Of a DNA stretch of 64,000 nucleotides, positions 1 to 41,692 are shown in pieces. Below the pieces are notes generated by a model that worked only from the letters and a program-made list of their open reading frames with translations, ran no database searches and was not told the origin of the DNA. Where the stretch lies: NCBI GenBank assembly GCA_008632985.1, contig QPGO01000002.1, positions 992,001 to 1,056,000 of the forward strand, read 5' to 3'. A program made the position numbers and the translations under genes. Positions within the stretch are counted from its first letter, which is position 1. Every line of letters starts with the position of its first letter. This DNA is from Psammoneis japonica. Lineage: Eukaryota.

Positions 1-1795
1 CGTTATTACAGCTTTTGCTCCCATGCCCACGGGACTGTTATCATCTGAGTGCAGCTGTCGAGGCATCGATCAATGTATCTGCATCACAGAGGAAGTAGAA
101 GCTTATACTGCTTTTGAGCTGTTCTGTTTGGCAAACGCACGAGCGTCGGCTTATTGCCTTTATCCGCTCTACATCATCATGTTTCTATCAATGTCTCGGA
201 ACCTTCGAACGAAGCTTCAACGTACAATCGTTGCAGAGTTCATTCCACTAACAAGCCTACATGCTCTCCACGCATGGGCAGGGACGTTGATTGGCGTTGT
301 TATATTCTGGCATGCTTTATGGCACTTCATCCGATGGGGAGTACAAGGCAAGCTATTGTCCATGACGTTCGCGACTCAAGTTGGTATCACGGGGTTCATC
401 GCTCTCGTCATTACACCAGTTCTTGTCTGGCCGATGCGCCTGGCAAAGCTTCGGTCAAGGATCAATTTTGAAACCCGAAAGAGAATGCACTATTTGAGCT
501 GGGTATGGGCAGCTCTGCTGTGCTTCCACTCTCCTGCATCGCGTATATTCTGGATCATTGGATCAGCCTTTTTGGTGTACCTGGTTGATTGGATATACGG
601 CCTCTTTATGACGACTCACCTAGTTCCATCGGCACGTTTTGTGCTGCTTGAATCAGCGATTATGATTCGTGTTCAGAAGCCCGATGGATTTCATTTTGCG
701 GGATCAGGCGGCTATTGCTACCTTTGCGTACCCTGGATATCAAAGTATGAATGGCACACATTCTCCGCTTACAAGGATCCCTTTGATAGCGAGTACGTTT
801 GCTTTTGCATCTCAGTTGTTGGTGACTGGACCAAGAAACTCCAAGACGAGATTCGCGAACCCATTTATCGAAGGCTTTGGATCTGTGGTCCGTTTGCGTC
901 TCCCTTTGAGAAAGCTTGCCTTCAAGACAATACCATTTCAATTGCCAGTGGGATTGGCATTACTCCCGCTGTCAGTGCAATCAACTCTCTTTCTACTACC
1001 CGCAAGATGCATTTGATATGGATTTGTAGAGAGGCAGGACTCGTAGAATTCATGGTTGATTATGGTGCGATGTTTGATGACGAAGCATACACATTTGTCT
1101 TTTACACCGGCAAACGTGAGCTCGTCTTTAGACGCAAGCTTCCGCCTAATTTGTTTCTGCTCAAGGGGCGACCGGATCTCAGCAATCTGATTGCTGTGTT
1201 AGTCCGTAATGGTGGAGACGATTGTGATGAACTGGATCTCTCGTCTTATGAAAAGGTCAACAACGACTTGATGCAGGGCGAGGACGTGGAAGGTGTGCCA
1301 TCTGCCGAGCAGAGGTTCTATACAGAGATGCTTCGGCTTCTCTTCTCATACACGGCCGAGGAGCTCTTTAATGATGCTGTTCGAAGGTCGCGTTTTACTA
1401 GCCGGTGTGTCTGTTATGACGGCCTCAAGGAGTTAGTGGATGATATTTTTGATCGAAAGTTATCCGACGAACAGCTGCGAATCGTTTTTGATCGGATAGA
1501 TCATGACAAGAACGGATCTATTGAATTTGAAGAGTTCAATGCATTCATTAAAGAGATGGAAGAGGACGCAGCGAAAGACTCCAAAAGACAGCGACTTGCA
1601 CTTGAAGACTTCCATGAGACTATGCAACGTCGAATCACCAGCAGATTTGAACCGGGAACGCGCTTCACCGAAGAGGTTGATACTCCCGGGTGGAGGCTAA
1701 TGTACTGCGGCGGAAGCGATGGGATTATCACACTCCTTCAAGCCATTTCCAAAAAGAACCATGTCCCCCTTTCGATCGAGAGTTTTCGATGGTAG
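1..1795 (+). CDS. Ferric reductase/NADPH oxidase (NOX-like) with EF-hand, copy 1; 5' end lies before the window
   Basis: Heme His pairs in TM helices (HALHAW..WHALWH, MHYLS..FHSP), FAD motif EWHTFS and VVGDWT, NADPH motifs GPF, ASGIGITP, YCGG and terminal ESF; EF loop DHDKNGSIEFEEF. Base 1 aligns to 33355 inside copy 2. Confidence 0.85.
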   Translation, partial: VITAFAPMPTGLLSSECSCRGIDQCICITEEVEAYTAFELFCLANARASAYCLYPLYIIMFLSMSRNLRTKLQRTIVAEFIPLTSLHALHAWAGTLIGVVIFWHALWHFIRWGVQGKLLSMTFATQVGITGFIALVITPVLVWPMRLAKLRSRINFETRKRMHYLSWVWAALLCFHSPASRIFWIIGSAFLVYLVDWIYGLFMTTHLVPSARFVLLESAIMIRVQKPDGFHFAGSGGYCYLCVPWISKYEWHTFSAYKDPFDSEYVCFCISVVGDWTKKLQDEIREPIYRRLWICGPFASPFEKACLQDNTISIASGIGITPAVSAINSLSTTRKMHLIWICREAGLVEFMVDYGAMFDDEAYTFVFYTGKRELVFRRKLPPNLFLLKGRPDLSNLIAVLVRNGGDDCDELDLSSYEKVNNDLMQGEDVEGVPSAEQRFYTEMLRLLFSYTAEELFNDAVRRSRFTSRCVCYDGLKELVDDIFDRKLSDEQLRIVFDRIDHDKNGSIEFEEFNAFIKEMEEDAAKDSKRQRLALEDFHETMQRRITSRFEPGTRFTEEVDTPGWRLMYCGGSDGIITLLQAISKKNHVPLSIESFRW

Positions 1796-1884
1796 TGTAT
1801 TGCGCGTGACAGTGTCTACGTGCGTATTCGATCACTCCAACATGTAACAATTAGAGACATTCATGTCACGAGAGCGTACTCACT

Positions 1885-2530
1885 TCGTGGCGTAGCTTGA
1901 AAGGAACCATTTGCTTTCTTCACAACCAACCCGTCATTTTGCAAATCTTCCACGAGACCAGGAAAATCTGATAGACCACAGTTGACTTGATTTGCAATTC
2001 TGCGAAAGTCGTCCCTTTTCTACCCATTTGCTCCAACGCTTCTACAAACGCCTTTTTGTTACCCGTCACTCTAATGTTGCTACTGCCGCCACCGCTTTCG
2101 TCTGCGTGTGCTTTTTCATGGTCATGAGTTCCACAACGTCGACAGCGCTTTCTTTCACTGCGTGTTCCCGAAGACAGGCCTTGGCTTGCGCTTGTGAAAG
2201 CCCAATCAATGCTTCCAATTGTGGTGCAGTAATTTGAACTGTGTAGTTCTTGCTGGATGAATCCCAATCGGGACACCTGCACAACAAGTAAAAGTCAAGT
2301 CAGTGAGCTGAGATTGGGACACGAGTGCTGTTAAAACATCGTCGTGTCGCACCGCAGCTTCACATGGTAAAGCAGTCCTCTAGAACCGCTGCAGCCCCCA
2401 TGCGTAAGTTTGAGCTTGCTGTGCTTTCTCGCATGTGAAATGCAGTTGCAAGCCAAATCAGCAGGGAGTTGCTCCTGTTGAAATCCAATCACCCAGACGA
2501 GCCAGCCCTTGGGTTTTTCCGAATCAACGT
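1885..2530 (-). pseudogene. MCM8: Decayed duplicate of the MCM8 3' end
   Basis: Aligns to about 35245-35932 (ITAPQLEALIGLSQAQAK vs ITTRQLEALIRLSQARAK; DLACNCISHARKHSK vs DLVRDYISYAREYCK) with frameshifts and deletions; homology stops at about 2530. Confidence 0.85.
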
Positions 2531-3160
2531 TGTGTGGCTTTTGCAAGTGTTGGACCAGTTCTCACAGCTTTTCCACTGGCCAATGTGTGTCGTTCCACTC
2601 AGCTGGCCCCAAGATGCGCACGCAGGCCAGCGTTGTTCATGTCAGCAGGAAGTTTTCACTTCGCACCATCGTTCAGTGAGGTCAATTTCACTGCTCAGCC
2701 CTGGTCTCAATCAAAGAGCAAGGCTCCCCACTGATGATTTCTTCCCCAAGGTGCCACTCATCTTGACATCACCTTTGTTGCCACTCTTTCCCTTCCCTGA
2801 CACGCAAGCTCAGCTCAGCTCTCAGCTCTGCTCTTGTGCTCCCTGCACGAAAACTGAAACCACGCACACTGCAAGGAGTTGGGCATCTGTCCATCACTGT
2901 GTCACTGTGCGGCAACACCGACAACCCATCAAAGGCGAGTTGCAGGGAGATGGATTTGCACGACCATTGCTTTGCATCATAAAAATTGAAGCTAAAAAAT
3001 GTGAGAATAAGATTGGATTTGATCACTGAAAAATGACCCAAAAAGTCCGTCATTACTGTACATAAGACTATTATCTCCGGGCATATGTTTTGAAGGTCAT
3101 TTCCTTTTATATAAGTTTTATGAAAGACTTTAATCAACCCTGACATTTTGACGGGGCTTA
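2531..3160. mobile_element. Unclassified degraded repeat truncating the MCM8 duplicate
   Basis: TpA-poor to about 2980, like the other TE islands; no recognisable protein motif. Confidence 0.3.
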
Positions 3161-3408
3161 GTACCGGTACTGTGGAGGTAGACGGAAAGAATACAACCCT
3201 GGGTACAACTGCGTAGGGTCTAGTACTTCTTCTACAGGGTCACCAGGAAAGCACAGACACCGACTTCCGCTACATCAACCTGCAGCACCCTCCAAGACGC
3301 GCAGCTGCGAAGACAACCAAAAAAGAAAACGATCGCGACAATGGCCTCCCTTGCGTCGCTGATATCTATATCTATTTTTGCCGTATTTTCCCGTTTCTTT
3401 TCGCAGCA

Positions 3409-4392
3409 TTAGGAGCTTTTATACAAGTAATATGATGGGCTAGTGGTGCTGGCGTTGAGTTCAATCCGTCGAGGCGGATTTGTCGCTGAAGGTGCAGTGC
3501 AGAAATTGTGAGAATGCAGCATCAACATGACGGATTTTTGTGATATACTATTGTATCTTTGGTGTTGTTTCTCACTTCTTGTCATTATTTTGACGTATGT
3601 GCTATAAGGTGTCCACGGGGCTTGGGTTTTTATGTGCTGACTTCTCTCGGAACTTATCGTTGAATAATCAAAATTGAGCTGCCACTGGAATTTATGGTAA
3701 AGAGTTGGCGGCGGTGATATCTCAACATCCCTTGGGCCGATTTTCGCGATTCTTGTTTCATTATTAATGGAAATTGTACAAGGAATCCAAGAGGCTTGGT
3801 TTTGTTGTGCAAAATTCCATTCTGTGCAGATGGATTTATTGGATGCCGTGCGCACAGAAATGATGCTTCAATTGGAAGGGGCGCTCCAGCGATGTTGTGG
3901 ATTGAACAAGGAAGAATGAAGCCCTAGACACGCACTACATGTAACAAGAATATTAAATATGAATGTTAAACATGGCACGGGGTTTTTTACGTCAGTTGAT
4001 CGTGTCGGGTTGCCTTGATTTGACAGAACATTCCACGGCACCAACCGGTTTGACATGTAGCTGGAAATCGGCTTCCTCCAGTGTTCCAACCAATTTGACC
4101 TTGCTTGCATGGGCAAGCTGTTGTCGCCTGGTTCGGGCGTTCCATACGCCTTTAGACCCATCCACCACGACATCGTTGGGGGTTGTTTGAATGGCCTCTG
4201 GTTGGTGAAGTCTTGTTCACATTGACAAGTCACCCCGCCAAGAAATAACGTGAGTGCTATCAAGGTTGGCTTGTAATACTTTTTAGACGGCATGGTCTCG
4301 GTTGTATTGTTGCATAAATCTATCAAAAACGCGACGTACCATGCAACAACCCGGTTGTTTCGATACGGGAAAAATTCCCGTGCTTCCTCCAC
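3409..4392 (-). mobile_element. Fragment of a stramenopile Crypton-like element (pseudogenised)
   Basis: Segment KAYGTPEPG..ARSNWLEHWRKPISSYMSNRLVPWNV..QGNPTRSTDV resembles, from memory, the N-terminal region of oomycete/diatom CryptonS-type proteins; the frame is broken downstream. Confidence 0.4.
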
Positions 4393-4704
4393 AAGAACAC
4401 GGAAGATACGGTCGCTGAAGTGGGGTAACGGTCAGTACAATGTGTAGAATTCAACGGAGAAATACTACGGAATACAACATGGGTTGTATTCCCGGGATAA
4501 TGTAGAAGTATGTCAATCGTCGTTCAGAGAACACAACAGCGTTTTCAAACACTATAGCCCTACTGTCTAGGGATGTGAAATATTCTGCTTACGACCAATA
4601 AAAAAGGAAATATTTCTACTTACGACCAATAAAAACAAGACAGGACGTTAGGTACCAGAGACCATCGTCAACAGGTGATAGTGTTTTCTTTCCTCCAAGA
4701 CAGT

Positions 4705-7700
4705 ATGAGCTTGATGTTGCGTGTGATAGCCGTCTTTGTAATATCCTCGATTGTGGTCCCGGTCGCCGGTAAGGATGACATTGCCATTTGGGCAAATAGC
4801 GGTAGCACCCCCCCTGGCTATGCTCTTTGGGACGGGAACTCGTTTTCTTCCTCAATGAGTATGCAAAGTACTCGGACACGATGGAAATTAATCAGAGGGG
4901 CCTACTCACCAACGCGTAATGAAGCCATTGTGCTCGGCCTGACATATGGCCAAGAGGTGACGGCGCAAATATACAATGGTAAAAGTTGGAGTAACCTACC
5001 TTTTTCGCCAATTGACTACAAGGGAAAGTCATTTTATCAATCAGCATTTGACGTTCGTTACGAGTCTAAAAGTGGAGATGCGTTGTTGGTGTGGATTGAG
5101 GGTGAGACGGACATTATCTCGTACAGAAAATGGAATGGGGTCTCCTGGAGCTCCGAAACGAGAATCAATGTACCATCAATGGGACAGACTCACTATCAGC
5201 TGGACTTAGTTCCAAGTCCTTTGTCCAATGAAATGATGTTGATTGTTGTTGGGGACGCGAAGTCTGACGACGTGCTTGTATGGGATGGAAACAGTTTTGG
5301 GAGAAAGTTCGAGATAAAAAACAATGTCAACTATGGACTCATCAAAGTAAAGGTGGTATACGAACAACAGAGTGGCCGTGCTATCATGGTATATCCAAAG
5401 AAGTCTCATACACTACATTATCGTGTATGGAATGGCTCATGGAGTGGAGAAGGCACTATTACTCCTCCCAGTGGCATCTCTTCATCGTACGATATCAACT
5501 ACATTTGTGCAGCTTCAGATCCGTCCAGCAATCGTATTGTCGTGGGAGCATCTACTTATACAAAGTTTGCATCGTGGTTTGTCATTTGGGATGGTCGGAG
5601 CGGCTGGGGATCAAAGGTAAACGCTGCGTCTTCATCTTCGGCGAGAATTATTCGAACTATCGATGTGGCATTCGAGAGCAATTCCGGTCAAGCTCTGGCA
5701 GTGTATACTAGAGGCAGTGACAAAGTACTTTACAGAACGTTTTCTTCATCATGGTCTTCCGAACGAAGTGGTCCCGACGTCGGAGACCAACCTAACTCCA
5801 TGAGACTATTCTCTTCGCCTAGTGACGACGAAATCATGATTGCTATTCAGGACAACAGCCAAGACGCCAACTTTTGTCTTTGGGAAGGAAGCGACTGGGG
5901 TCGTGTCTACCGGATGACAAGCAACACGGGCGAGACGCCAAATCGGGGTCAGCCGTATTTGTTTCTTTGGAACCAGAAGGAGGATGCACCTCCAACTTTG
6001 CCTCCAAGCCCCCCTCCATCACCTCCACCTACTCCAATGAGACCTACACCATCTCCAACGTCCTCTCCCACAGCAAAGCCAACGGTTTGTGTTGACGATC
6101 CAGGGGGGTGGTATGATCCTGATGGCGAGATCTATAATTGTGCATGGTATGGTTTAGATGACAACTGCAAAGAGTACGGAGATCTCTTTGAAAACTTTGG
6201 AGTAACGGCGAATGAGGCTTGTTGCTCCGTAAGTGCAATGCCAGCTTTGTTCTCTCTCTCCTCTCTCCTCTCTCTCTCTTGCTATTGAGTGGATTCAATC
6301 ATTTGCTCATCGATTATGTTTTGTGTTTCACGTTAGTGCCAGGGCGGGAAACTTCTGTCAATCGACGAGATTACCCCAACCCCGACACCTCTACCTACCG
6401 TAACCCCGACAAAAATGCCGACAACAAAACCGACAGATGAACCAACGCCATTGCCCACATCATCCCCTTCATTGAAGCCCACTCCTTTATTTACGGAGTT
6501 TCCAACAACACCTCCGACTCCAATTCCAACGGTGCCACCTACGCCGCCTCCTAGTCCTTCTCCCACGCCGCAACCAACTCCAGGGCCAACACCTACGCCC
6601 TCACCACCTCCATCTCTTAGTCCCACGCCATCACCGCCGACACCAGCTCCCTCGCCTCAGCTAACATTAAGTCCGACACCTCTACCAACAAATAAGCCAA
6701 CTCTCATTCCTACCGAAAGGCCGACAGCTCCACCGTCTCCGTTACCAACAAGGGATCCCACTAATCCTCCAACTCTGGTTCCCACGTCAAAGTTAACGCA
6801 TCTCCCAACCATAGAGCCATCGATATCTCCTTCAAAGAGGCCAGCAACATCTCCACCTACTCAACAGACCGGCAGACCAACGAAAGTATCAACCGAGACT
6901 CCGACATTGGTGCCAACTGCTCGACCGACTGCTGCGCCAACGATGTCACCAACATTAGAACCAAGCAAGAGCCCCACCATAATGCCCACACGGAAACCGA
7001 CTTTGGTGCCTAGCGTCTCACAAACACCAAAACCGACAACAGAACCAATAAGAACACCCCCTCAAGACACACCATCGCCAGTCGCATCAGACGTTGGTGT
7101 GTCTTTCGCAACAGATCTCTTGGTATTGGGAGGGCTTGTTCAATTGATAAAGATTGCAAGTCTAATGCATGCAGACGTGGAGTTTGCATGGCTTCATCTG
7201 ATTGTTATCCGATCAAACATAAACATGGAGCCCAGTTTACGAAGCACCACGTTAACATTGTCTTTGTCGCGTCGGCCTTTGATGGCGGGAGTCATGAAGA
7301 ATGGAACAATCAGGTCAACAAGACGTACACCTTGTTTAAAAGCTACAACATGTTCTCTGAAAGCATTGACGAACTGAGTTTCTTTCGTGTTGACCCTGAG
7401 AAGCTGGACGCATCATTCTGTATGAGAGGATGTGCAGGGATAGATCGATTATTGTGGTAAGTGGTGGCTACGTTTAGAAAGTCAATGGACAGAATTGATA
7501 TCTAATTTATGCTTCAATTCCGTTTCCGTGTTCCTGTTAAAGCTGTGATGTTGAGCGTGCCCACAGATTATCAAGCAAGTGTTCGCCCGTCGGGTCGAAT
7601 ATGCAAACCGTCATCATTCATAACTCCAACGCTTATGGCGGAGCGGGTTACACAATTTCCAACGTAGCTACTACGTCAGTGCATCCAAATGCTCCGCTGG

Positions 7701-8668: not shown

Positions 8669-8919
8669 CCTCGAATCAAACATAGATGTTGCTATAGATG
8701 CACCTTCGACTAGCTACAGGTTGTTTCAGCACATTGAAAGAGTTAATTTTCGCATCTCTAGTGGTCGTATCGTACGGAACGTCCCGGTCCGTGAAATGTG
8801 AATTTTGGTTGACTGATGATTCGAATCGAGCTTGGTCGTGAAACCGTCGAAGTGTCGTTCCAAAGGAGGATGCCTTTGACATTTTTTATTTCGCAGGAAG
8901 ATCAGCACAAAAAGCAAGT

Positions 8920-10870
8920 AGGCACCAAAGAGTGTGAATCCTGTGGTTGGACAGGGTTCTCAGGGAAATGCCCAACCAGCCAACCAAAGTCAAGAATGAG
9001 GACGAGGTTCTGCACCCAATGCTGTCAGTGTGCCAGGAGTGTTGGTGGTGCACCTTGGCAGCCAGTGGTGACTCAGGGGGAGTGCCATCCCCAGTCATTC
9101 ACACTTGCAATGATTTTCATGCCACCACCTCAAAGGACCCTCCATCAGAGGAAGCAAGACAAGGCCATGGCACCCTCCCCAAGCACATCTCAGCAGCATC
9201 TGAGCACAACAGGTCAGTGGTCACTGTGCACTGCTGTTTGGCAGCAGTTTTGCAAGGGCCTGGTGAGGTGCAGGGTTGTGCCACTCCTGTGTTTTGAGAT
9301 GCCCGGCAACTGCTGCACTCTGGGCTTGCATCCCCAGGTGCCTTGCAATGGCAACACATGCCCGCCTTGGCTGGGGACATGAACACATGTGTCTTGGTGG
9401 ATTGCCAGTGCCACCAGCAAGCCCACTTGTTGACCCAAGTGACTCTTTTTCTGTCAAAGCATGCACCACCCAGTCTGAGTGCATGTGTGCTTTTTGCCCA
9501 TGAGGCTGCTTTTGCTGGTGCCTCTTTCGCCAGAGGCTGTGCTCATGAAAGTCCATCATGGAGCCAGCACAACTGTGTGCTGCCAGCCAAGAAGTTGCCG
9601 CCAGTGCTCCCAGATTTCCCAAAGGCAGCTTGTGTGGCCACCACAGCAGACCCCAAGATGTCTGCCACCACCCAAGATTGGCCAGCCATTCAATCACAAC
9701 CCCAACTCAGACCTGCCAGATTGGCTGTGCACTGCTCTCTGCCAGCAGCAAGTTCATCATCCCATGGTGCAAGCCATTGACAACTTTGCCATTGAGCAGC
9801 ATGCCAATGTCTTTTTTGTCAGGCCATTGCTCTCCATGATTGTCACCCAGAAGCACAATCACTTGCACCAGCAGTGATTTTTGTTCACAGCTTCAATGGC
9901 TTTGCACCCGTTGTTGCCTCTTTATTTTGTTTCAATGCAACCCAACTGTGCAGTCCAAGCCCTGGCACCTGTGGACTCTGTTGCCTGTGCTGGTGCACTC
10001 TTTTATGATGTCAGCACTGCAAAGCATGCTGTCCAACACAGTGTTGCCATTGCAGCAGACACTGCCTCCAGCGGCTTGCTCGCACATTTCTTGAAAATGT
10101 CAAAGATCCCATCTTCTTCCTAAAGTCTTCATCTCAGCATCAAACTGGTGTCACTGCAAGGCAACCCTGTTGATGTGTGCACCACCAAGGATTCCATGCA
10201 GCAGGTTGGTGTTTGCTGTGAAGGAGTCTTTGGAAACATTTCCCACCCCAAGGCACCAGCATGCTGAACTTCCAACCAAATTGCCAAATCAGTTGCTGCT
10301 GCAAGAAACAACAAGACTCAGCTCCCAAGAGTGCAAAGCTGGCCTCTGAAGCTGTTGCTGATGTGCACCATCATTTTTAATGCACCCAGGCCAGCATGCC
10401 ACAGCTCTCTCTGAAACCCCCTCACATGACTCCTGGGCAACACCTGCTTGGCTGCTGGCAGTGTTTGTCCAGACATCTTCCTTGAGGCTGCCCTTGCACC
10501 TCTCCATTGCCAACTTGTTCATGGCAAGGCAGCTGGACTGGGCCCATCCAGCCACCCCAAACCCTGTCCCACTTGAGCCCCACTCTGTTGTGTGTTGCAT
10601 CAGGGAGAGAGCTCCTGTGGCACCACACATGACACACCCATGCAGGCCCACTTTTGAGAATGGCCAGCAGCACATCAGAGTGCACGAAATGTCAAAAATG
10701 TGCAGATTTACATGATGACAATTTGTGAAAACACTGCAAAATGTTGTTGTCGTGTGATGACAGGCCAACCTCTGGTTGCAAGTTTGGTGCACCAATGTTG
10801 CAACAACTTGTCAAGAATTGTGCATGCTGTTTTTCACTGTGTCCACATCACCATTTCTGCCTCCACCTTG
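8920..10870 (-). mobile_element. Heavily eroded element, possibly a non-LTR retrotransposon (RNase H and 3' region)
   Basis: Near-total TpA and CpG loss; faint minus-strand relics (AATD..GALGW, VCCNG, LLNGKVV, DSIGC) resemble diatom LINE RNase H and C-terminal motifs. Confidence 0.3.
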
Positions 10871-10969
10871 TTGCCACATGCCAATGCATGATTGCATTGC
10901 CACACAAACCTTGGTTTGTTAATTTTCGTAAACATCATTTTAAACGAGAAAAACATTTCATCAGTTGAG

Positions 10970-11761
10970 TCAATTCCTTGTTGTGTCTGCAGTGCAATGA
11001 CCGAGTGCTGTGTCAACTGTGTGCACATTTTCTTGCTGCAACTCTCTTAAACTGAGCCAACAATCATCATCAGACTCGTCTTCATTGGACTCGTCTTCAT
11101 CGGATTCGTCTCCTCCGTTGTTTGTTTTTCCTTTTGCGCCTTCCTCCTGCTCATCGTCGTCACCATTGTCATCCCTGCTGCTCTCCACCATCAGGCTGTT
11201 CATTGCCTTCACCTTCTCCGCATCACCGGTCGGTGCCATCTTCTTCTTCTTTTTTGCTTCTCCGGACTTCTCGCACTCGCTTTTCTTGATCTCCGCATGT
11301 CACTTTTCAAACTCCTTGCCCTCCTTGGAGTCTCTGTCTTTCGTCACCTCTTTGCACAAATCGTTGAACCAAATGATTCCGTCGTCTCCCCAAGACACTC
11401 GTTGTTTCTTTGGCTTCGTGCACCGAGGGGCAGGCCTTGTTTCTTCGGGCTCCATTTCCTCGCCCAATTCTTCCACCACCTCCTCCTTGTTCCTGCATGC
11501 CCACACCTGCCAACAATTCTCTACAGCTGACAGCGCCAAAGCTTCGTCACCCACCGCAAACAACTGTGAGACCTGTGCATTCCCAGTTTTGATGGTGCGA
11601 CTCCATGCCTGCTTTTGCTTGGTTTGAGGTAGGATGTGATCACAGAACCACTTGCATGCCTGCTTGTTCCTTTGTTTGCCGCCGGTGACAGTGTCCAGGC
11701 TAAACGGATCCCATGTCGGCACAAACGGGAGACTTGTTCCAGACTTAGGTGGCGCGCACAT
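10970..11761 (-). mobile_element. Degraded accessory ORF of a diatom DNA-transposon-type repeat
   Basis: Pattern VGDEALAL..VEN.W..W...P.CT....SWGDDGI.WFN.LC..V..DR...F with an acidic tail recalls a repeated TE-associated diatom ORF; TpA-depleted and broken by stops. Confidence 0.45.
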
Positions 11762-12065
11762 CCCCCTTTTCGCAGAAAAAATAATTTTTTAATGCTTCAT
11801 TGAACACCACACATGTTTGATAAAATTGATCATGTCAATGGCTTGTGAGGAAAATAAACAGAATAAACTCGAACAAACAAACAGCCAAACCGGCCTTTTA
11901 GCAGCGCAGGGGGAAGGACAGACACATCCACCCCCCAATGCATGCAGCCTTGAACGACCTGAATGCCAATGGCATTCTTTGCAACTCGTCGCCGCCTGCC
12001 GAGGCAGCAGCAGCAGCTGCAAACTTTTTGACAAAGGGAGCGACATGCGCCAACCTTGTCTCTGG

Positions 12066-14104
12066 ATGGCTGCTGTCCCTCCTGCAGTCGCCGGTGGAGC
12101 GCCTCCGGCACCCCCAAAAACATGCCACGACAAGTGGATGACCCAAGGCGATCACTTGGGAGGGGAGCACACGAATTTATTCCGTCGACACGATGCCACC
12201 GTCGCTGCTCCCAAGCCGGCCGCTACGCTGCTCGAGCACACCATCGACTCGAGCGACGTGGCACCCAAGGCCTTTTTGGTGCCAGTGCGCCAAGGCACGG
12301 GGTGCCGGATTACCTGCATCCACCGGCCCTCGGTTTACATAAGAGACCCGGTGGAGACCTCGCTGTGGGACGGTCGTGTGTTCTGTTTTCAAGGAGATGT
12401 GCTGCCGGGTAACTTCGCTGCCATCTTCGAGTTGCCCAACACTCCGTTTGAAACTGTGGGTCCACAAGTGGCACCTGCGGTGGCCAACATGGCCGCCCCA
12501 GAAGGCACTCTGGTGGATGAAGAGGAATTGGTGAGGTGCCCCATGCCTGTCTGCATCTTGTGCTGAACCGGGATCTCACTCCTCTACAGGCCTGGCGGGA
12601 ACTCGCAGGAGCAATCCAAAACGACGGACGTGCGGGGGACTTGAGTCCCCTCATCGACTGGTTGCGCGCGGCACTCACCACCGACACAGCGGCGAATCCA
12701 GATCCGGTTCAGTGTGTGGGTGATCGTGCCACCGCCTTGCCACCACTTGCGGTGGACGCCTGCCTGCAGGAGCATCGCTGGCGTGCGTTGTTACAGGACC
12801 TTCCCGCCCTGGATACAACGGCCGTAGACAACACCGACCGGGTGCTGGCTTTCGCCAACATGGTCCGCGCCGATGCAGCACGTGCGGAAGCAACACGTTC
12901 CGCAGCGGCGGCAGCGGCCGCCACCTCCAAAACTCCGACGGAAGCCTTCCCGCAGACTGCGCCCGTGTGGCTCTTGCTTTCGAGTGCACCGGATGATGCG
13001 GCTTTACCCGCGCTGTGCCACGCCTGGGCCAACAGCACCAAAGCCGAGCGGCGCCTGTGTTTTGCTCGCGCTTTGGAAGCTCGCGCTCAAGAGCCTGACG
13101 CGGCGTCCCGTGTGGCGCCCACAGTCTCCAAGGAGTTGTACGAGATGGTGTTGCAAGGGAAGGTAGCACCTCACATGCACCAAGTGAACGATTTGACCGC
13201 CGGCGTCTCCCCATTCACGTGCGGCTTCTTTTTGGCTGGACAAGGCTCCACTGTACAAGTCCGGGCCGAACGCTACGACCTCGCGTTGGCTGGCAACTTG
13301 ACGCCTGCCGTTGCGGAACAGGAGGAGTTCCGCACCAAGGACACACCTCTTCCCACGTCCACTTGCCATTGCGGAAGCATGCTTCAAGCTGCCAGTCTGG
13401 CATTGGACGTCATCCAAGGATCGAATCACCCCCATGCTGTGGCATTCTGGCAGTTCTGCTTGGAAGATTGGCGAGACATGGTCGACCTCCTCGAACAATC
13501 GGGAGCACTCCTGGCTGAGGGGAACGCACTTCCCCGAATCTGTCGCGAGGTGCAGATGCTCATGGGAGTCTACCTGCACAGGCTCACGCAAGGTGGTGTA
13601 CCCCGGGTGCCCGACTGCACCGCTGTGGCGCACAAGGTGCTCCACGGACAATTCTCCTTGCTGGCACAGTTGCCACACCATTTGCTTGGCCAACCAGAGC
13701 AGACAACCAATTCCCAGGCGAGCTCAACCAGCGCCAGCAACAGTGGCACCCCTTCCGCGGCTGCCGCCGCTGCGGGACGTTGCGACCCGGGTGCGGCCGT
13801 TACGAATCCCAACCCGGTGCGGTCCTGGCTGACGGCCTTTGCACAAGCCGGGATCCGCCTGGCTACGGTCCGACGTTTCGCACCCCGAACCACGGATTCA
13901 AGTGGCACCGCATGTGAAGTGTGCCTTTCCCATCACCTAAAAGGAACGTGCTTCGCCAACTGTGAGCGTGGCAACACGCACCGGAACCTCTCGCCACGAG
14001 AGAGGACGGCTGTGAGCGCGTTCGTTTGGGACCACGTGTCCAATCCCCAAGAAGGTGGCGCCCCAGCTCCGGCACCCGCGCCGGTGCCGGCGGCCTCCAC
14101 CTGA
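12066..14104 (+). pseudogene. Ngaro gag-like ORF1 (frameshift near 12540)
   Basis: Two overlapping ORFs; C-terminal zinc-finger-like CLSHHLKGTCFANCERGNTH; positioned before pol. Confidence 0.7.
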
Positions 14105-14155
14105 GGACGGGGGCCGGTCAGCCCTGAGGCTGGCCTGCAGCCCTCCTCTGCCTGC

Positions 14156-16141
14156 TTGCCAGATCCGCACCAGCAGTGTCCACGCAGCAACGAACTAGGC
14201 AAGTTGGTGGAGGACCATGTCAAACTCTTACAAACTTTAGGCTGGAGCCAGTTCGTTGCACACCTGCGCAGGGAGCCGTGTCTGGCCGAAAATGTTTGGC
14301 AGCTACCCCACCCAGCTGCCGAGTTACTTTCTAAACTCCGCAACGATGGAGCACCGGTCCAGTTTTCAACGGAAGACTGGTCCCCTCACCAGGTCCGGAT
14401 GGCGACCGACCGTGGGAGCCATCCGTCCACTCACGAGCACCTGGGCTTCCTCGAATCGGACATGGTGGACATGATCCAGAAACGACACTGGACAGTCCTG
14501 CCTTGCCGCGAAGCCTGCAAGCTCCCCCACCTGCGTGTCTCACCGATGGGCGTGGTGCCGCAACGCGACCGCCGCCCGCGCACCATCGTTGATTGCAGCC
14601 ATTGCGGTCTCAACGACGAGACTGTTGAGCACGCCCCTCCAGAAGCCATGCAATTCGGTCGAGCTCTCGACAGGTTCTTGCACAACATCTTCCGTGCAGA
14701 CCCGAAGCACGGCCCGGCACACATGCTCAAGCTTGACCTTTCCGATGGGTTCCATCGCGTCGGGCTGCGACCCCAGGACATGCCCAAGCTCGGGGTGGCC
14801 TTCCCAGTGGGCCCAGGGGAGGAACCGCTGACAGCGCTGCCTCTCGTCCTGCCCATGGGCTGGACTGAGAGTCCGCCATTCTTTTGTGTGGGCACCGAGA
14901 CGGTGATTGACTTGGCGAACAGCTGCTCACCCACAGCTTGGGACCCTCCGGTTCATCCCTTAGAACAGGCAGCGGCCACTCCAGCGCCTCATGACAACAC
15001 CTTGCGCATCGACGTGCCGCCGCCTTCCAGTGCAGCTCCGACTGGCCGCGCATCACGCCTTCCTCCTCCCGCTGCTCTCCGTTGCAGACCCCGACGGGGC
15101 TCTCAGCCATTAGAGCACTTCGATGTCTATGTCGATGATGAAACATGCGCCGCACAAGGAACAAAGGCTCGTCTCAACAAGCTACGTTGACGCCTCTTAC
15201 ACATCAGCGATCAAGTCTTCCGTCCCAACACACCGTCTGACGAGCACTGGCGGCGTGAAACCATTTCGCTAAAGAAACTCCTCAAAGGCGACGCGTCGTG
15301 GTCGACGGTGAAGGTCATTTTGGGGTGGCTCATAGACACACTAGCCGGGACTGTCGAGTTGCCGCCGCATCGTCGACAACGCCTCCTTGATGTTCTGGCC
15401 GACACCATCCCTCGCCGCCGCATGTCCAACAAACAATGCTGCAAACTTCTCAGCAAAGTCCGCAGCATGTTGTTAGCGGCATCCGGTGGTGCGGGCCTTC
15501 TCTCCAACCTCCAGCACTCTCTTGCCACCTCTGGTAACTCCCGCACTCGCATTGACCGCCATGCGCGTCGCCAGCTCCAAGATTTGCACACCTTGGCCGT
15601 GGACATTGTCTCGCGTCCCACTCGGCTGGCTGAACTCTTCCCTGCTGCCGACGGGCACTTCTGCGGGGCGTGCGACGCAGCAAAACCTGGGTTTGGCGGC
15701 GTCCTGTTGCCTGGCCCTCAAGACGACTTCCCTCCTGCCGCCTGGCAAGTTCCGTTGCCTCTAGACCTGCAAGCCGCCATTGTTTCGGACGACAACCCTA
15801 CAGGCACCACAACAAACTCCGACCTCGAGCTAGCCGGCACAGTGCTGCAAGAGGCCGTCGTCGGCATCGCCGTCGACGTCAGGGAACGCACCGTCCACAC
15901 ATGCTGCGACAACACGCCTGCCATTTCCCGGCGCGGAAAAGGCTCTGTCACAACCAACGGCCCCGGCGCCGATGTGCTGCGGACGGGGAGCCTACAACAA
16001 CGGCAGCTCCGACACGTCTCCCGCTTCCATTGCATTCCTGGCCCAGCCAATCTCCTCGCAGACACGTGCTCCCGAAAATTTTCCACGCCGTCTCACCTTC
16101 TTGCTGTGCTTGCTCGCCTTGCCCCACAGACGAAACCTTGA
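14156..16141 (+). pseudogene. Ngaro reverse transcriptase-RNase H (premature TGA at 15188-15190)
   Basis: SPMGVVPQRDRRPRTIVD, KLDLSDGF, LPMGWTESPPFF, YVDD, ILGW; RNase H CDAA..GGV, NSDLELAG, DNTPA, ADTCSR. Confidence 0.92.
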
Positions 16142-17285
16142 CAAATGCCACACCCGCTGCCAGACATCGTTTCTTCACTGATCTCCGCCTTGCGACGGCA
16201 AAAGCCCACGAAGCTGTCACTGGCGAGTGCGCCCGTGCCACGGACACCGTCTGGGCCAAGTGTTGGTTGCCTTTCCTGTCCAACATCGGAGTCGAAGACC
16301 CTCTCCTCACCGGTGTCCAAGACAAAATCCCGATGCTCCAAGTCTTTGCCTGTCATCTTAGGGATGGATGCCTCAGCTGCAGCGGCAACCCAATCTCAGC
16401 TCCGCACGTTCGTGACGAAGTCCTTCACATCACGAAGACGTTCACCGAACTGAGGGCCCCGGACCCGCGGCTAACGCCACACGGCACTGTGGATCCTCGC
16501 CTCACTCGCCTTTGCAGTGCGCACTCCAAAGACGATCCGCCGCCGAACCGCGTCAAGCCTCTGCCGATCCAAATCGTGCACCACGCACAAGCCCTTGTCG
16601 ATGAATCTTCCGCCCTCGACAACGCCATCATCGACATGTCCTGGATCGGCCTTTTCTACCTTCTCCGACCGGGGGAGCATTGCAAGAGCAAAGACAATGA
16701 CCCTTTGGTTCTCAAAGACATCAAACTGCTCGTCGGACAACGCGCACTTGACCACTTGACCTGCCCCCTGCAACAGCTGTTCCTCGCGACACACAGTGGC
16801 ATTGCGTTTGACACTCAAAACATGCTAGAAGCTCTCACTCCAAGGCATGCCCGGTCCTCGCCATCGCCCGCCGTGTGCATTGCCTTCGTTCCAACGGCGC
16901 CAACGCTAACACCCCCCTGTGTGCTGTGCGCCTCGGTGCGCGTTGCGGTCATGTCACGAGCCGTGCCACCACCAAAATGCTCCAAGTGTCAGCTGCTGCC
17001 TTGCCACATTTAGGATTCCTGCCGAAAGATGTCACAGCCCGCAGCCTCCGCGCCGGCGGCGCCATGGCCCTGCTGTGCGCAAAAGTGGACACCGACATCA
17101 TCCGTCTTGTCGGCCACTGGAAATCCGATGCTGTGTTTCGACACCTTCACGCCCAAGCATTGCCATTGACAGCAGGACCATCTACGAAAATCCTGAACTG
17201 CGGCAATTTCACACTGCTCCCAGGGTCCGATGTCCCTCCCATTGCGCAAAACATCATCAATCAAGCCAACGCACCCACCAACTGA
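16130..17285 (+). pseudogene. Ngaro tyrosine recombinase (frameshift near 16820, catalytic Tyr replaced by His)
   Basis: FYLLRPGE, ARSLRAGGAMAL, LVGHWKSDAVFRHLH versus the usual GRW.SDA..RYL. Confidence 0.88.
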
Positions 17286-18539
17286 TGCGTCCACGCCTTC
17301 ACCCACCCTCAGCTCTGCTTCTGGCCCATCCCCTTTTTCCTTGTCGGCCCTCCAAGAGTGGCGGATCGGAGGCGGTCTCGGTTGCTGGTGAGCCCAAAGA
17401 GGGCAAGAAACCCCAGCAAAGCGCTGCTGACACCACCAACCACCGCCTCCCAACTGTGGTGGGACACACCCCCCAGCAGTGTTGGTGGCGAACAGCCATT
17501 TTAGCAGTGCAGGGGGAAGGACAGACGCATCCACCCCCCAACGCACGCAGCCTTGAACGACCTGAATGCCAGCGGCATTCTTTGCAAGCGGCGAGGCCGC
17601 AGCAGCAGTTGCAAACTTTTTGACCCTCCACTCCCACCCAGCCGCCTCATCGGAGGCGGTCTCGGTTGCTGGTGAGCCCAAAGAGGGCAAGAAACCCCAG
17701 CAAAGTGCTGACACCACCAACCACCGCCTCCCAACTGCAGTGGGACGCACCCCCCAGCAGCGTTGGTGGCGAACAGCCAATGGCTTTCAGTGACCATGAC
17801 GGCCCACTTTTTTCAGCCTTGTGGAAAATTGAATGTCATGACCAGGATCTCCGTATTTAATGTAGTCTGTGTCATCAACAACAACAGTGAAAATGCTTGT
17901 TGAAGGCTGCAGCGCGGCACAACAATGCCAAATCTGTCAGCAACAACAATTGAGCCTCTGTTCACTCACAATTTGCCTCTAAGGACCATTTCTTTTCTAT
18001 TGCCATGTACATTTCCTCAACCCATTCGACTGATTCAAGTGTGTCAATCGTTTGTGCCTTTTAAACCGTGAAAAATGGTCGGAAGTCGACGCCATTGCGT
18101 GGGCTGAGCTACAGTGCACTTCTTCTCACGTCGTCCTAAACTTGTTAATCAACGAATGCTTTATTCGATCCGTTGAGTGTAACTCGTATTCGCGCATGAA
18201 AACAAAATGTTAATTGTGCTATGTTAAAGACTTAATTTACACATGTTAATAACATTTTATGTGTTTCTTGTTACATTGGGGCATGTGTAGATCGCTCATC
18301 GGAAAATTCGAGCTCTCAACTTACGGTGCAATTTAGCGACTAATAACTAACTGAGTCCATCAACAGTTTCGTATACATGGGTACACGCACAAGACAATTC
18401 TGCATGTTTGTTATGTTTTTACTGTCGAAAATGGCACCGCAAGTGTGGACCGCGCGTTTCATGCAAAAAGGGTCATTTTTTCGCGCGTGAGTGCACCTGA
18501 GTCTGGAACAAGTCGGGATGTCATTCTCTTCATTCTTGT

Positions 18540-21500
18540 CACGGCTTGACTTTTTCCTGTTTTGCTTTTTCCTCCTGACTGCCGCCTTGAGTTTCTTTTC
18601 TTTTTCCTTTCCCTCTTCCTTGGTGACAACGCCTGTGCAGATAAAGCATCACACCGTCATCTTCTTGTGAGACGCACGCAACTCTCGAATCACACACATT
18701 GGTCACTTGACTTGCGGGCCATTGCCTCCGCCCCAACAGCCGAACACACCGTGTTTCTGCAATTGTTGATTTGCCTTTTTACCGCCATTCCTCCCAAGTT
18801 CCTGACCAATTTGAAGTGTCCATGTTGCCACCAGCAATCTGTTTCTTGAAAAACATTGAGACACTCCCATTGCTTGCCAATTCTGATGGACTGAGAAACT
18901 TCACCTGTGGAAAGAGATCATTTCTAGCCACCTTCTCTACTTCTGATTTCAGTGCACCATGTGCTGCCTGCGTGCCTGTTCTCTTCAACGCTGCCTGAAG
19001 TCTCGGGCTCATTGGCTTGACAGTCTCATTTTTCTTTCTCTTCTTTGCCAGTGGTGCTGGAGACGACATCTTGATCTTCACACGGCAACGATGAGAGCAG
19101 TGTTGCTGTTCGACAGTGCAACCGTCGTCTGGGTCGTGTTGAGACAGCCAGCCACTCCATTTTTCTCTGTGACATTGCATGGGTCATTGTCAGTGACGTT
19201 GAAATTTGAAAATGTGTTCACACATGACAATGAACAGTCCAACTTGCTTTTTGACATGGCTGTCATTGCGTTCCAACGGAGACAATGTCCTTTGTTTTGA
19301 CAGTGAATAAAAAAGAACAACATTCATTGCAAATGCCAGATAAAAAATCAAAATGCAGACACGTCACACCCACAAGAATCATCCAAATCTGGAGGACAAT
19401 GTAATGTTTGGCATTTTCCCGCCATTTTTTGCATGTTGTTCTTCTTTTCCCTTCTCATCCACAAGACAAGGACGATGAGCATGAGTCTTGATGAAGGCCC
19501 TGTCAACATTGACCAGAGAACTGTGAGGCAATGGCATCAGCGTGCAGACTTGGTCAGTCGCTGGCAGCTTGATCACAAACGAAACAACTGGCTTTCAACG
19601 CCTGAGAAGACTCAGTGCTCACCCAAGTTACGGGTTGTCCCTGTCGAAGCAATTGGGGACAATGTTTTGGTTTATGAACAATGTCCAGGAGCAGCAGAAG
19701 CACAAGAAAAGGCCCCATTTGTTTGGGCTGCACAGGACAGAAGGAAGTGTTGGTCAGATTTGTTTCTAAAATGGGACGTGCGTCTGGATCTGTCATTCAC
19801 TCACAGTGATTGCCCAACTCTTTCTTGCAAACATGATGAATTTGATCCTTTCAGAATTGGCAAAGTCATTGCAGCACATGTGAAGCAGTGAGGTGCCAGC
19901 ACCTTCCGTTGCTTTTGTTCTGATGTCTTCTTCGGAAACTCCAAGATGAGCTTCTTCCTGATCGGAAGGCTTTCCCAACCACCGTTCTCGATGTTCTTGG
20001 GTTGCAAGGTTGCTTGCAAAGAACACACTCGCACGGCTCTTTGCAGCATCCTTGTCCATTGTGCATGTGTCGAACACAGCCAATAATTTCTTCCATTGTT
20101 TGACAACCTGGAAGAAGGTTGCAAGAGCAAAGGGAAAAATCACTGTGTCCCCCCCTTCTTCGTTTTTGGAGAGCAAGGCCCAAAGATCAACCAGATTTTG
20201 GAAAAATTGAGTCGTCCCAAAACGACTGTCGCACCACTCTCCATCTGGCATCCAGCAGCAGTCCAACATGATTTGGTCGAACCCATGATCATCAAAATCA
20301 ACAAGTTTCTCAAACTGCTGCTTGACTCTCTTGACGAAATCTCTTGCTTTCACATTGCAATTTAAGTGCAGATCAGGATGTCCATCTTGGAGAGAAACTG
20401 TCAGAACGACATTTGTGACTGTTTTGTCAGATTCCTCAAATGCCATTGCGCGGGCCTCGTCTCGCCTGTGTTGGTCGGACGACACTGAGGCCACCCCCTT
20501 CTCAGAGCACAATTCTTGAGAAGACAGTTGCCTTGCATTGAGCGGACGGGTCATCCCCAACCACAGCACATTGTGTGTTTCCCCGTTAGTTTCGTCACTT
20601 GCGAAACAATCTCCTAAGTCTCTATGGTCCTCTTCAAACTTGGAGCAATGTGCAACTTGGTTGTGCTCATTGTCAACAGGCTCTTCGCTTTTGTCCTCTT
20701 CACCCATGTAAGTTGTAGGAAGTTCACTTGTTTTCTTGTCAATTGACTCCTCCTCGCAATCGTCACTTTTGTTCATTGTGAATGACAACAAATCACCGGC
20801 GGCCTTCTTCCTGTTAGAACGAGAAATCAATGTGACAATGTCAGCACAATCAGACAAAAAACAAATGTGATTGCCATGAAAAAGCAACCTCTCTTTGCCA
20901 TTCCAGTTTGGCTCGAACTTCATCAATCGTCACGAATGGGACTGGCTCCCATTCACACCTTCCAAGGCCACTTGATCATTGATTGCCCATCAGAGAACAA
21001 GAGCAACAGATGCTGTCCGTGACAAAAGACATCGCAGATTCCCATCTTTTCATGAGCTGCACTCAGGTCACATGGCAAAGACTCTGGACCATTCTTTCCA
21101 CAGTCTTCCAAATCAAAATCACCCTCCATCCGTTCCAAGAGTAAATCGTGCTCCTCCACCGGGACCTTCATTTCCTCCATTTGCTTTGCCGCTCCCAACT
21201 TGGCTGCCGGATAGACAAGATTGCAAAGGTCAAGGTGAGGATGGATCCCTGTGCCACACAGCATCAACATCTGTGTAGAGTTCATGCATCTGAACTCTCC
21301 ACAATCAGCACCTGCATGATCCCATGTTTGGACCATGGTTTGAAACACATCCTCGATCGCCTTGTGGCCAAACGTTGGCTTGCCAACATTGTCATTGATC
21401 CAGTCAATGAGAACAACCAGTCTGCCAACAAGCAAATCCATCAAACCATTGAGTTTCGTCCCGCACTCTGCCACATGAACCTCCTCGAAATCGAGTCCCA

Positions 21501-31942: not shown

Positions 31943-33010
31943 GCTGCACGGCTGCTCTGTTGTTGCGGGTGGCTTCTGTGACAGCTGTGTGGCTGCGTCT
32001 GCTTTTTTGTGAGACGATATCTCCTCCGTGCCGTGTCTCTAGTCTCGAACTTTAGCACGGTATCGCAGAAGTCTTGCGGGTGGTGGTGAATCTGATGATG
32101 TAAAAATTCTGGCGCGTTTCAAGGTTATGTGTGTATACAGACATGTGATGTTATATTTACATCAACTTTCAGAGAACTTTCGGGTTACTTCTTCTGAAAG
32201 TTGCCAAATCTATTCCGGAAAGAGCAGCAAATTGCCCGAGCAGTTTTGAGCTGCACCGCACGACTAAAAAATTTAGTATCATGAAGATAGAACGACTTTC
32301 AGAAAGAGTGAATGACCTTGCTGCAGTGGCTTACAGTACAAAGATCCATGAGCATCCATCAGTTAAAAGTCTACAGTATCCGGTCTTTGTGTCGATGTCT
32401 CGATGTCTTATCTTTTTTTTCCAATTCTACGAATCCTTACGTAGAATTTCAATAATGTCAAGATCAAACTGTCAATGGCCACATACACATGACTGATGAG
32501 AGCCAACAGACTCTCATCCCGCGGCCGCCTGTGCACAGTTGACTTGTGCGTCAAGTAAGTTCTCTTGTTTTTTTGCGTTCTTCACAGTTCTTCAGAAGTT
32601 TATTATCACATTTTGTGTTCCGCCTTACACGCTGACTCACATCATTTTGCAACATCATCGCACATCATGTTTTAAAGTTTCGCTCGTCATACCGTAGAAT
32701 TTTCGCCACGAAAATAACTGCGCGATGCACGACGTGTCCTTTCTATTCTACAGAAAGATTAGTACTTATCTAGCTAGGTACTTCTACTACGTCCGACAGG
32801 ATCACGACTAGGGTCATTGTTCTAGAAGCGCATTCTTCTCACAAAATACCGTAGCTGTTTCATCGTCCTCGCATGCCTCTAACCAAGAATAACAACAGCC
32901 GGATCTTTGTTTCAGCTTATCACGACTGCAGTCATCGTTCTAGAAGCACGCTCTTCTTCCTTCTTCCTGTCCTCGCAAATTTGGCCGTTCGTCGTTCTCA
33001 CTTCCCCGGC

Positions 33011-35149: not shown

Positions 35150-35246
35150 TGCGATAGTCTACTGCGCCTGACAGTTCGACGGACGTATTAGATCATTAGG
35201 TACATGTAACAAATAGAGATATTCGTGTCGCGAGAGCGTACTCACT

Positions 35247-38037: not shown

Positions 38038-38109
38038 GGTTAATGCATTCGAGTTGAAAATGAATAATTTCACAGATTTTAGCGAAAATACAAAATTATT
38101 GAATAATTT

Positions 38110-41100: not shown

Positions 41101-41520
41101 GCACGCAACAAGGCACACGGTTGCCACTTACACTGCTGCCTCTTCCCAATGATAAGTCCATTGATATGATTGCTACATTTCCGAGACAAGCCAGTTGGTG
41201 TCAACATACAATAAACGAGTCGTCTCTACCTGCCACGCACTGTCGCTCCGTGCCGAAAAATGGTGCATAAGTCATCAAACGACATTCCATCTTTATGGAG
41301 AAAGTGATAAGCCAGTAATCAGCAGCCTTTTATCTCCATAGCGGATGAAGTGGAGTTATGATGTGTTATACAGCAACAATGCAGACTACGGGATGAGACG
41401 GACGCAACAAACTGACGGTCATGGAGGTGACGGTTGGTTGTGTTTTGAATCGGAATTTTGTGGATTTCTTTGCGCGTGCGCGCTGTCACCCGTTTTTTTA
41501 ATGTCCTGGTCTCCATTGAA
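38110..41520. repeat. Large imperfect inverted duplication (foldback-like)
   Basis: 38113-38225 is the near-exact reverse complement of 41401-41517; patchy homology continues inward to about 39330 and 40460. Confidence 0.85.
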
Positions 41521-41692
41521 ATCAAAAATACTCGAGCTTGTTTATGAAACAAGTAATCTGTGTATTCATGAATCTATAAAATATTCAGTCGCGCCATTTT
41601 TTTCTCAAAGAGAGAAAGAGAACAAAGCCAAAGAGCACAAAAAATCAAAGAAGCTCTTATTGTTCTTTTTTGACGCGCAAACTTGAAACATC

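Follow-up and report, generated by a model that had tools for sequence, protein, structure and literature searches.

The stretch considered here, hereafter the window, comprises 64,000 nucleotides of the diatom Psammoneis japonica (GenBank assembly GCA_008632985.1, contig QPGO01000002.1, positions 992,001 to 1,056,000 of the forward strand), and it holds two copies of a segment in which the 3' part of a NOX-like gene (ferric reductase/EF-hand) lies beside the 3' part of MCM8. In one copy MCM8 is intact, whereas in the other only a dead 3' fragment is left, and part of this fragment has lost nearly all of its TpA dinucleotides to TpG or CpA. The loss took place at the DNA level, fell on both strands alike, was specific to TpA and confined to a domain, was independent of duplication as such, and struck host-derived DNA. 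The features of the locus are collected in Table 1.

By BLAST self-comparison, positions 1-2511 (copy A) form a direct duplicate of 33355-35906 (copy B, the intact copy); the 2565 aligned columns are 89.5% identical and include 202 mismatches and 12 gap openings. In a global alignment, the homology continues past a 9-bp gap to about 2529/35933. Copy A runs off the left end of the window, so that the duplicate starts at or before position 1 and not at 1796, the first position of the alignment suggested in the initial annotation. The NOX-like gene is matched by the Pfam families FAD_binding_8, NAD_binding_6 and EF-hand. The best homologs of intact MCM8 are the MCM8 proteins of raphid pennate diatoms, including Nitzschia, Pseudo-nitzschia, Phaeodactylum, Mayamaea and Fistulifera, at 50-58% identity. 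Of this gene, copy A keeps only the last ~640 bp, made up of the final exon, the intron before it and the end of the exon before that, and the fragment is broken by frameshifting indels and substitutions; DYISYAREY of the intact protein reads NCISHARKH in the dead copy, and the translation agrees with the reading given in the initial annotation. The strings quoted there are likewise present, the dead-copy string exactly at 2431-2453 and the intact one at 35826-35848, one base off the 35827-35849 that had been assigned to it. In copy B, the NOX-like gene (+ strand) and MCM8 (- strand) are convergent, with 97 bp between their stop codons (NOX stop at 35147-35149), and because these lie so close together the 3' untranslated regions (UTRs) of the two genes probably overlap.

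Table 1. Features of the two copies and of the adjoining DNA, in window coordinates.
Feature	Position	Strand	Basis or remark
Copy A of the NOX-like (ferric reductase/EF-hand) gene, its 3' 1.8 kb ending at the stop codon; unmutated part of the duplicate	1-1795	+	Pfam
Duplicated intergenic/UTR DNA and distal part of the dead MCM8 3' fragment, TpA mostly kept	1796-2081	-	3/17 copy B TpA converted
Dead MCM8 fragment, hypermutated portion (some of the last exon, retained intron, end of the preceding exon)	2082-2529	-	17/20 TpA and 8/24 CpG converted to TpG/CpA; frameshifting indels; orthologs
DNA without homology to copy B and without any TpA	2530-2979		Forms a TA-poor tract of ~0.9 kb with 2082-2529
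NOX-like gene, copy B (open reading frame 32873-35149)	33355-35149	+	BLAST, list of open reading frames, Pfam
Intact MCM8 gene, the ancestral-state reference for the dead fragment	35247-38073	-	Pfam MCM, MCM_OB
Intact MCM8, last exon (stop codon 35249-35247)	35673-35247	-	
Intact MCM8, last intron	35674-35753	-	
Intact MCM8, preceding exon	from 35754	-	

Contigs of two sequencing runs, X1 and X2, bear on copy A and its surroundings. The stretch is contained in only 3 runs of one sample, none of them recorded as RNA; X1 and X2 share their sample with the best-matching run and may be the source of the assembly itself. A single X1 contig of ordinary depth (60) spans 1942-3174 with 3 differences, and an X2 contig matches copy A over 1520-1871 with 0 differences. 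Run X2 is RNA-like, since its four joints are without exception GT..AG skips; its cover is lacking over 2002-3335, which is not taken as evidence of silence. Contig depth, here and below, is a sum over contigs and not a copy number.

The divergence between the copies is unevenly spread. The NOX part (1-1795) differs at 104 of 1795 columns (94.2% identity), 1796-1880 at 14 of 84, and 1881-2511 at 84 of 619 (86.4% identity; 62 transitions and 22 transversions). Over 1881-2511, TA in copy B faces TG or CA in copy A 19 times and the reverse is seen once (binomial p=4e-5), and CG in copy B faces TG or CA 11 times, with 3 reverse cases (p=0.057). The NOX part is symmetric in both classes (TA 9 vs 7 and CG 10 vs 14, B to A vs reverse). 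When the TpA of copy B are binned along the segment, the converted share is 3/12 in 1796-1950, 0/5 in 1951-2100, 5/6 in 2101-2250, 8/9 in 2251-2400 and 4/5 in 2401-2511. Conversion thus reaches 17 of 20 sites in 2101-2511, with 1 reverse change, vs 3 of 17 in 1796-2100 (Fisher p=5.6e-5) and 9 of 74 in NOX, with 7 reverse (Fisher p=1.2e-9); the stretch 1796-2100 is itself not different from NOX (Fisher p=0.69). The transition frequency at TA sites is 0.39, vs 0.067 at non-TA/CG sites of the same tract, and the earlier expectation that TA losses would exceed other transitions and be unequal between the copies is thereby borne out. CpG follows at a slower pace, as 8 of the 24 CpG in the tract have become TpG or CpA, vs 10 of 100 in NOX (p=0.008). 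At non-TA/CG sites, transitions and transversions amount to 6.7% and 4.0% in 2101-2511 and to 4.6% and 2.7% in 1796-2100; because this background is similar on either side of 2100, both stretches are of the same age, and the excess divergence is specific to TA and, less so, to CG.

The direction of the changes was established with 81 MCM8 orthologs (at least 640 aa, among 120 listed), whose C-terminal 430 residues were aligned with the intact spliced C-terminus. Every codon differing between the copies was compared, and codons at which at least 40 orthologs aligned were taken as informative, which holds for 40 of the 41 nonsynonymous differences. At these 40 codons, the intact copy has the ortholog majority residue in 26 and the dead copy has it in 3, and in the other 11 it is found in neither copy; by simple ortholog support, copy B exceeds copy A 33 times, copy A exceeds copy B 5 times, and 2 are ties. 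Between 1796 and 2511 there are 20 events of TA to TG/CA, of which 12 lie in nonsynonymous codons, and at all 12 the intact residue occurs among the orthologs, being the majority in 10, with the dead-copy residue present in 0-1 orthologs. Five tyrosine codons of the form TAY, at which 60-75 of 63-77 orthologs carry Y, read TGC, CAT, CAC, TGC and TGT in the dead copy, all of them Cys or His codons, and six CpG events are polarised the same way, with the change on the dead copy. TA and CG are therefore supported as the ancestral states and TG and CA as those that arose in the dead copy, the polarity that had been claimed from the letters alone. It is scarcely credible that the intact copy instead gained TpA, or that alignment or assembly created the pattern: this idea draws on nothing but the formal symmetry of an unpolarised pairwise comparison, and against it the orthologs back the intact residues, two aligners agree (re-alignment with MAFFT gives 15 of 19 TpA converted and 1 reverse), and the X1 contig reproduces 1942-3174.

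That the process acted on DNA follows from three observations: the intron is kept in the fragment, the fragment is contiguous with unmutated duplicated DNA, and both strands were hit, the products on the + strand being 11 CA and 6 TG. The initial annotation had likewise favoured a DNA-level process over an RNA intermediate, and its view holds. The duplication, too, was a DNA event and not a retrocopy, because the dead MCM8 still has its intron and adjoins the NOX copy without a break. The same facts make it most improbable that a double-stranded or antisense transcript underwent A-to-I editing and then returned to the genome by reverse transcription and integration or conversion. Change of A to G with a preference for a 5' U or T is indeed typical of known RNA adenosine deaminases, according to a preprint on Bigelowiella natans (10.64898/2026.01.13.699255); yet besides the intron and the contiguity with unedited DNA, both A to G (6) and T to C (11) occur on one strand, and 1500-4800 holds no inverted repeat.

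The tract in which TpA was lost has sharp edges. For the 36 TpA of 1796-2511, a step with a change point at 2081-2109 fits better than a logistic gradient (log-likelihood -16.2 vs -18.8), so the changes do not fade smoothly toward the NOX gene as had been suggested earlier. Conversions upstream of the step (1729, 1762, 1858, 1888 and 1923) show no rise toward the junction, the five TpA at 2021-2081 all remain unconverted, and the step itself lies ~430 bp from the end of homology. To the right, 2405-2980 is a TA-free gap of 575 bp, in which ~22 TpA would be expected at the ordinary window density of 37.8 TA per kb, and TA density is normal from 2980 onward (2980-3200). With the step at the left and the TA-free gap up to 2980, the affected unit is a tract of ~0.9 kb (~2082-2979). 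The neighbouring NOX copy and the intact MCM8 were left untouched by the process, and its left boundary falls within a duplicate of one age.

Such edges bear directly on the proposal that there was no targeting and that TpA to TpG/CpA is simply the dominant neutral mutation of this genome, visible in the dead fragment only because selection on it is relaxed. In its favour, TA and CG sites of the NOX copies differ by transitions ~5 times as often as other sites (0.105 and 0.106 vs 0.021-0.023, symmetric and uncorrected for codon position), and the TA-poor tracts of the window are the long gene-free ones. But 1796-2081, which is just as dead or intergenic, retains 14 of its 17 TpA, the intact MCM8 intron keeps its TpA, with TA in copy B at all 5 intronic TA events, TA density in 2980-3200 is normal, the TA changes in NOX are symmetric, the divergence at other sites is similar on either side of the step, and, locally, TpA is seen to be lost only in discrete domains. 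An untargeted neutral bias is accordingly judged unlikely.

An abrupt boundary at ~2100, beyond which the tract runs on into unrelated TA-free DNA, could also have arisen if 2082-2529 had come, through gene conversion or recombination, from a third, already hypermutated copy of the MCM8 fragment, for example one that a mobile element had captured. Across 2100, however, copy A stays collinear with the intact copy in the alignment, non-TA/CG divergence is similar on both sides, a single contig of ordinary depth covers 1942-3174, and no second near-identical copy was placed by the contigs at 92% likeness or above. A third copy is improbable, and it would relocate the TpA process, not remove it.

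The nature of the adjoining DNA at 2530-2979, from which the initial annotation had derived both a repeat at 2530 and a spread of mutations from a transposable element, is of interest in this respect. A low-stringency search with 2480-3050 gave only chance-level matches, so 2530-2979 has no relative in the window; it has no Pfam match, an Rfam search of 1500-4800 returned 0 matches, 1500-4800 contains no inverted repeats, and there are no tandem repeats inside the tract. It sits on a single contig of ordinary depth. Nothing shows 2530-2979 to be a repeat or transposon, and the repeat at 2530 is thus not supported; spread from a transposable element is not established by the absence of TpA in 2530-2979 and is one possible reading among others. 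A partly overlapping stretch, 2669-4669, has a summed DNA-contig depth 20-45 times that of its flanks, RNA-like cover, a GT..AG intron at 3507-3609 and normal TA (observed/expected ratio, o/e, 0.73-0.81); its repeat status is only suggested, and if it is a repeat, it escaped TpA loss.

Duplication itself is another conceivable trigger, in the manner of fungal repeat-induced point mutation (RIP), where the repeat is what is recognised. In ascomycetes, RIP turns CpA into TpA by C to T change, so that TpA is enriched, mutates both copies over the duplicated length, and leaks into neighbouring DNA. The diatom tract resembles RIP in that dinucleotide-specific transitions at the DNA level degrade non-genic or repeated DNA, adjacent sequence can be reached and a strong dinucleotide skew results, and the affected DNA does belong to a 2.5-kb duplicate. 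Unlike RIP, the ortholog-polarised chemistry is reversed, with TpA destroyed and not created. Moreover, 1.8 kb of the same duplicate, the NOX part, is unaffected in both copies, as its low and symmetric divergence attests; intact MCM8 is unaffected as well and has kept its conserved residues, and the tract reaches ~450 bp into non-duplicated DNA. Recognition of the duplicate in this manner is very improbable.

The tract of copy A is one of several TA-poor ones. About 20 kb of the window has a TA o/e of 0.02-0.2, with TG+CA o/e of 1.5-2.0 and CG o/e of 0.08-0.85 (1-kb windows), in long, gene-free tracts at 9-11 kb, 19-28 kb, 54-56 kb, 57-60 kb and 62-63 kb. Their contig depth varies, being very high in sum at 10673-12006 and 17343-20000, whose repeat status this only suggests, and ordinary at 8672-10672. 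CpG depletion is also uneven among them (24001-25000, for example, has TA 0.05 and CG 0.85), so that the decays of TpA and CpG are separable. At 8672-10672, which is TA-poor at a depth of 54-57 and has a TA-free gap at 8919-9923, the TA-poor stretch starts ~230 bp past the end of an RNA-like contig (7113-8688). A similar spacing separates the end of the NOX-A contig at 1871 from the start of the tract at ~2082-2109; with n=2, it is only a hint that TA-poor domains stop at a fixed distance from transcribed genes.

The TpA that survive in these tracts point to a sequence context. There are 125 in 20.2 kb of TA-poor tracts vs 1166 in 30.8 kb of ordinary sequence, and TAA or TTA accounts for 100 of the 125 vs 448 of the 1166. 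Relative to ordinary sequence, survival is 1.31 for TTAA, 0.20-0.33 for CTAA, ATAA and GTAA, and 0.00-0.07 for TpA with no flanking A on either strand. Values of ~1 with no susceptible strand, ~0.25 with one and ~0.05 with two fit an independent per-strand attack on T-A-(not A). Trinucleotide densities run in parallel, at 0.42 of ordinary for TAA and 0.09-0.12 for TAC, TAG and TAT, and among the products TGA gained least (1.21 vs 1.48-1.80). Within the polarised tract, conversion reached 13 of 13 TpA with two susceptible strands vs 3 of 6 of the TAA/TTA type (Fisher p=0.02).

Attempts to assign the TA-poor tracts to a transposon family had little return. Of 73 stop-to-stop open reading frames (ORFs) of at least 120 aa in TA-poor and repeat tracts, 55 were scanned with Pfam, the other 18 being overlapping ORFs inside a GC-rich element, and the only noteworthy match was a sub-threshold RVT_1 (E=0.0029) at 14105-15187. 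With the scan nearly empty, the TA-poor tracts are assigned to no transposon family. On the - strand they carry ORFs of 250-380 aa without Pfam match, e.g. 19793-20926, 20953-21930 and 23692-24543; these are probably artefacts and not genes, because DNA free of TpA has hardly any TAA or TAG stop codons. The GC-rich element, 5.9 kb at 11895-17780, has a GC content of 0.59-0.63, low TA and normal CpG, includes the sub-threshold RVT_1 match, and bears short direct repeats at its termini (11888-12032 resembles 17491-17624). An X1 contig of depth 3007 joins 11895 to 17780, which indicates that other copies of the surrounding repeat lack the element; probably it represents a retroelement that landed in an older TA-poor repeat.

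Two further arrangements occur in the window. An inverted duplicate (38108-38642 vs 40929-41521, ~86% identity) has TA to TG/CA differences in both directions (5 and 11), 10 shared TpA and CG to TG/CA differences in both directions (8 and 5); this unpolarised comparison fits TpA and CpG mutability on both arms. On the - strand, there is a cluster of paralogous large ORFs at 43440-47351, 48202-51216 and 51813-53321, two of them with DnaJ domains, and with internal low-identity repeats (43459-44530 similar to 51823-52894 at 67%; 49350-49890 in tandem).

A precedent for the loss of TpA exists in another lineage. In mutation-accumulation lines of the chlorarachniophyte Bigelowiella natans, the mutations in two integrated viral regions, one of a giant virus (nucleocytoplasmic large DNA virus, NCLDV) and one of a virophage, are almost exclusively TpA to TpG/CpA, at a rate elevated ~1000-fold. 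The NCLDV insert is transcriptionally silent, and as the cause an ADAT2-like deaminase of DNA adenine is put forward in that 2026 preprint (Mettrop et al., bioRxiv 10.64898/2026.01.13.699255). It is the single report of TpA-specific hypermutation of genomic DNA that the literature searches found. No report of TpA-directed hypermutation in diatoms was found in these searches or, by search term, in passages of the Phaeodactylum mutation-accumulation paper (PMC6604790). A metagenome scan with the MCM8 alignment gave 0 of 80 loci with a 500-bp window of TA o/e < 0.12 and TG+CA o/e > 1.5; these were mostly short contigs or archaeal MCMs, and the scan is uninformative on other diatoms.

The two cases agree in several respects: transitions are confined to TpA and give both TpG and CpA, discrete regions are affected with the rest of the genome normal (here with the step at 2081-2109 and the right edge at 2980), TpA is depleted in the long term with enrichment of CpA+TpG, and adenine deamination is proposed at the DNA level. 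They differ in that the B. natans mutations arose de novo in accumulation lines, whereas those of the diatom, a stramenopile and not a rhizarian, are read from a polarised paralog comparison. Furthermore, the B. natans inserts still hold at least 3.3% TpA, whereas depletion here is near-complete (TA o/e 0.02-0.1), and the targets there are NCLDV and virophage DNA, whereas the diatom tract includes host-derived single-copy DNA. The polarised target is a host-derived pseudogene fragment; some TA-poor tracts, at 10673-12006 and 17343-20000, are those of very high summed contig depth. In the diatom tracts, CpG decays alongside and TAA/TTA is spared; diatoms, CpG and trinucleotide context are not mentioned in the main text of the preprint.

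All of these observations are probably best accounted for by a regionally confined DNA-level process that turned TpA into TpG/CpA in the ~0.9 kb tract, regional targeting included. On either strand, TpA has been converted to TpG or CpA, almost to the end in ~2082-2979, a tract that takes in the last ~430-450 bp of the truncated, non-functional MCM8 3' duplicate, and CpG has decayed more slowly to TpG/CpA alongside. We infer that the process may be enzymatic, its targets being chromatin domains that are silent or foreign and not duplicated sequence in itself. Its chemistry would most likely be deamination of adenine, with A turned into inosine and read as G, by an ADAT/TadA-like nucleic-acid deaminase, by analogy with the proposal for B. 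natans, and the identity of this enzyme, taken alone, is put at somewhat less than an even chance. ADAR, ADAT2/3 and TadA share with the diatom changes the A to G outcome and the 5' T/U preference; DNA editing by ADAT2 in amphioxus and trypanosomes is cited in the preprint (10.64898/2026.01.13.699255). Unlike the usual case of these enzymes, the substrate here must be genomic DNA, and avoidance of A at +1 is a feature read from this window, not a documented property of theirs. The CpG decay would be a separate process driven by 5-methylcytosine, in line with the 8 of 24 tract sites converted and with a CG o/e of 0.08-0.6 in many TA-poor tracts; the loss of TpA is not explicable in that way. 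Ultraviolet photoproducts and generic oxidative damage were also considered and were dropped on the reasoning that they would not stop at domain borders.

Several points weigh against regional, TpA-directed deamination, or against parts of it. Only one pair of loci can be polarised, and its tract holds 20 TpA sites. Eight TA events among the 20 of 1796-2511 (5 intronic, 2 synonymous and 1 UTR/intergenic) are polarised by the 20:1 asymmetry alone, without an outgroup, and at three codons the dead copy has the ortholog majority residue, so the intact lineage has changed too. The CpG asymmetry within the tract alone is weak (8 vs 2 reverse, p=0.11). As for the motif, the strand-wise +1 test in the tract is not significant (TAA targets 2/6 vs TAB targets 15/32, B being any base but A), the rule is broken at 2296 (TTAA) and at 2350 (TTAC, which adjoins an alignment gap), and the comparison sets TA-poor tracts against genic DNA, the original compositions of which may have differed. 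Because TpA is palindromic, a T-directed chemistry (T to C) fits equally well, and the enzyme and the targeting signal are conjecture. The mechanism is thus drawn from one locus and one window, for a phenomenon that has its precedent in B. natans.

Taken further, the pattern may belong to a base-editing defence of diatoms directed at chromatin domains, in which the adenine of the strand motif T-A-(C/G/T) would be deaminated, or its thymine modified, and TpA erased from silent, repeated or foreign DNA together with any enclosed host DNA. It could be the same system as in Bigelowiella, an old counterpart of fungal RIP with the opposite chemistry, spread across the stramenopiles, alveolates and Rhizaria (SAR) or older still; this is a tentative proposal, with perhaps one chance in three.

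The locus constitutes a natural experiment with a known ancestral sequence, in which the direction of change, its DNA level and its sharp onset are all visible. It demonstrates that host-derived single-copy DNA can be caught up in TpA loss, and that within one tract the decay of TpA outpaces that of CpG severalfold. The sparing of TAA/TTA over ~20 kb, together with the polarised locus, provides a concrete motif for testing candidate deaminases. To the phenomenon of the B. natans type, the diatom adds near-saturating depletion, a single-copy host-derived target, co-occurring CpG decay and, as a candidate motif, T-A-(not A). Should the process be general, spurious long ORFs would be expected in TpA-free DNA, which has few stop codons, with a bearing on the annotation of repeats and pseudogenes in diatoms; it would account for degraded elements being hard to recognise, and it would bear on the spread of base-editing genome defences among eukaryotes.

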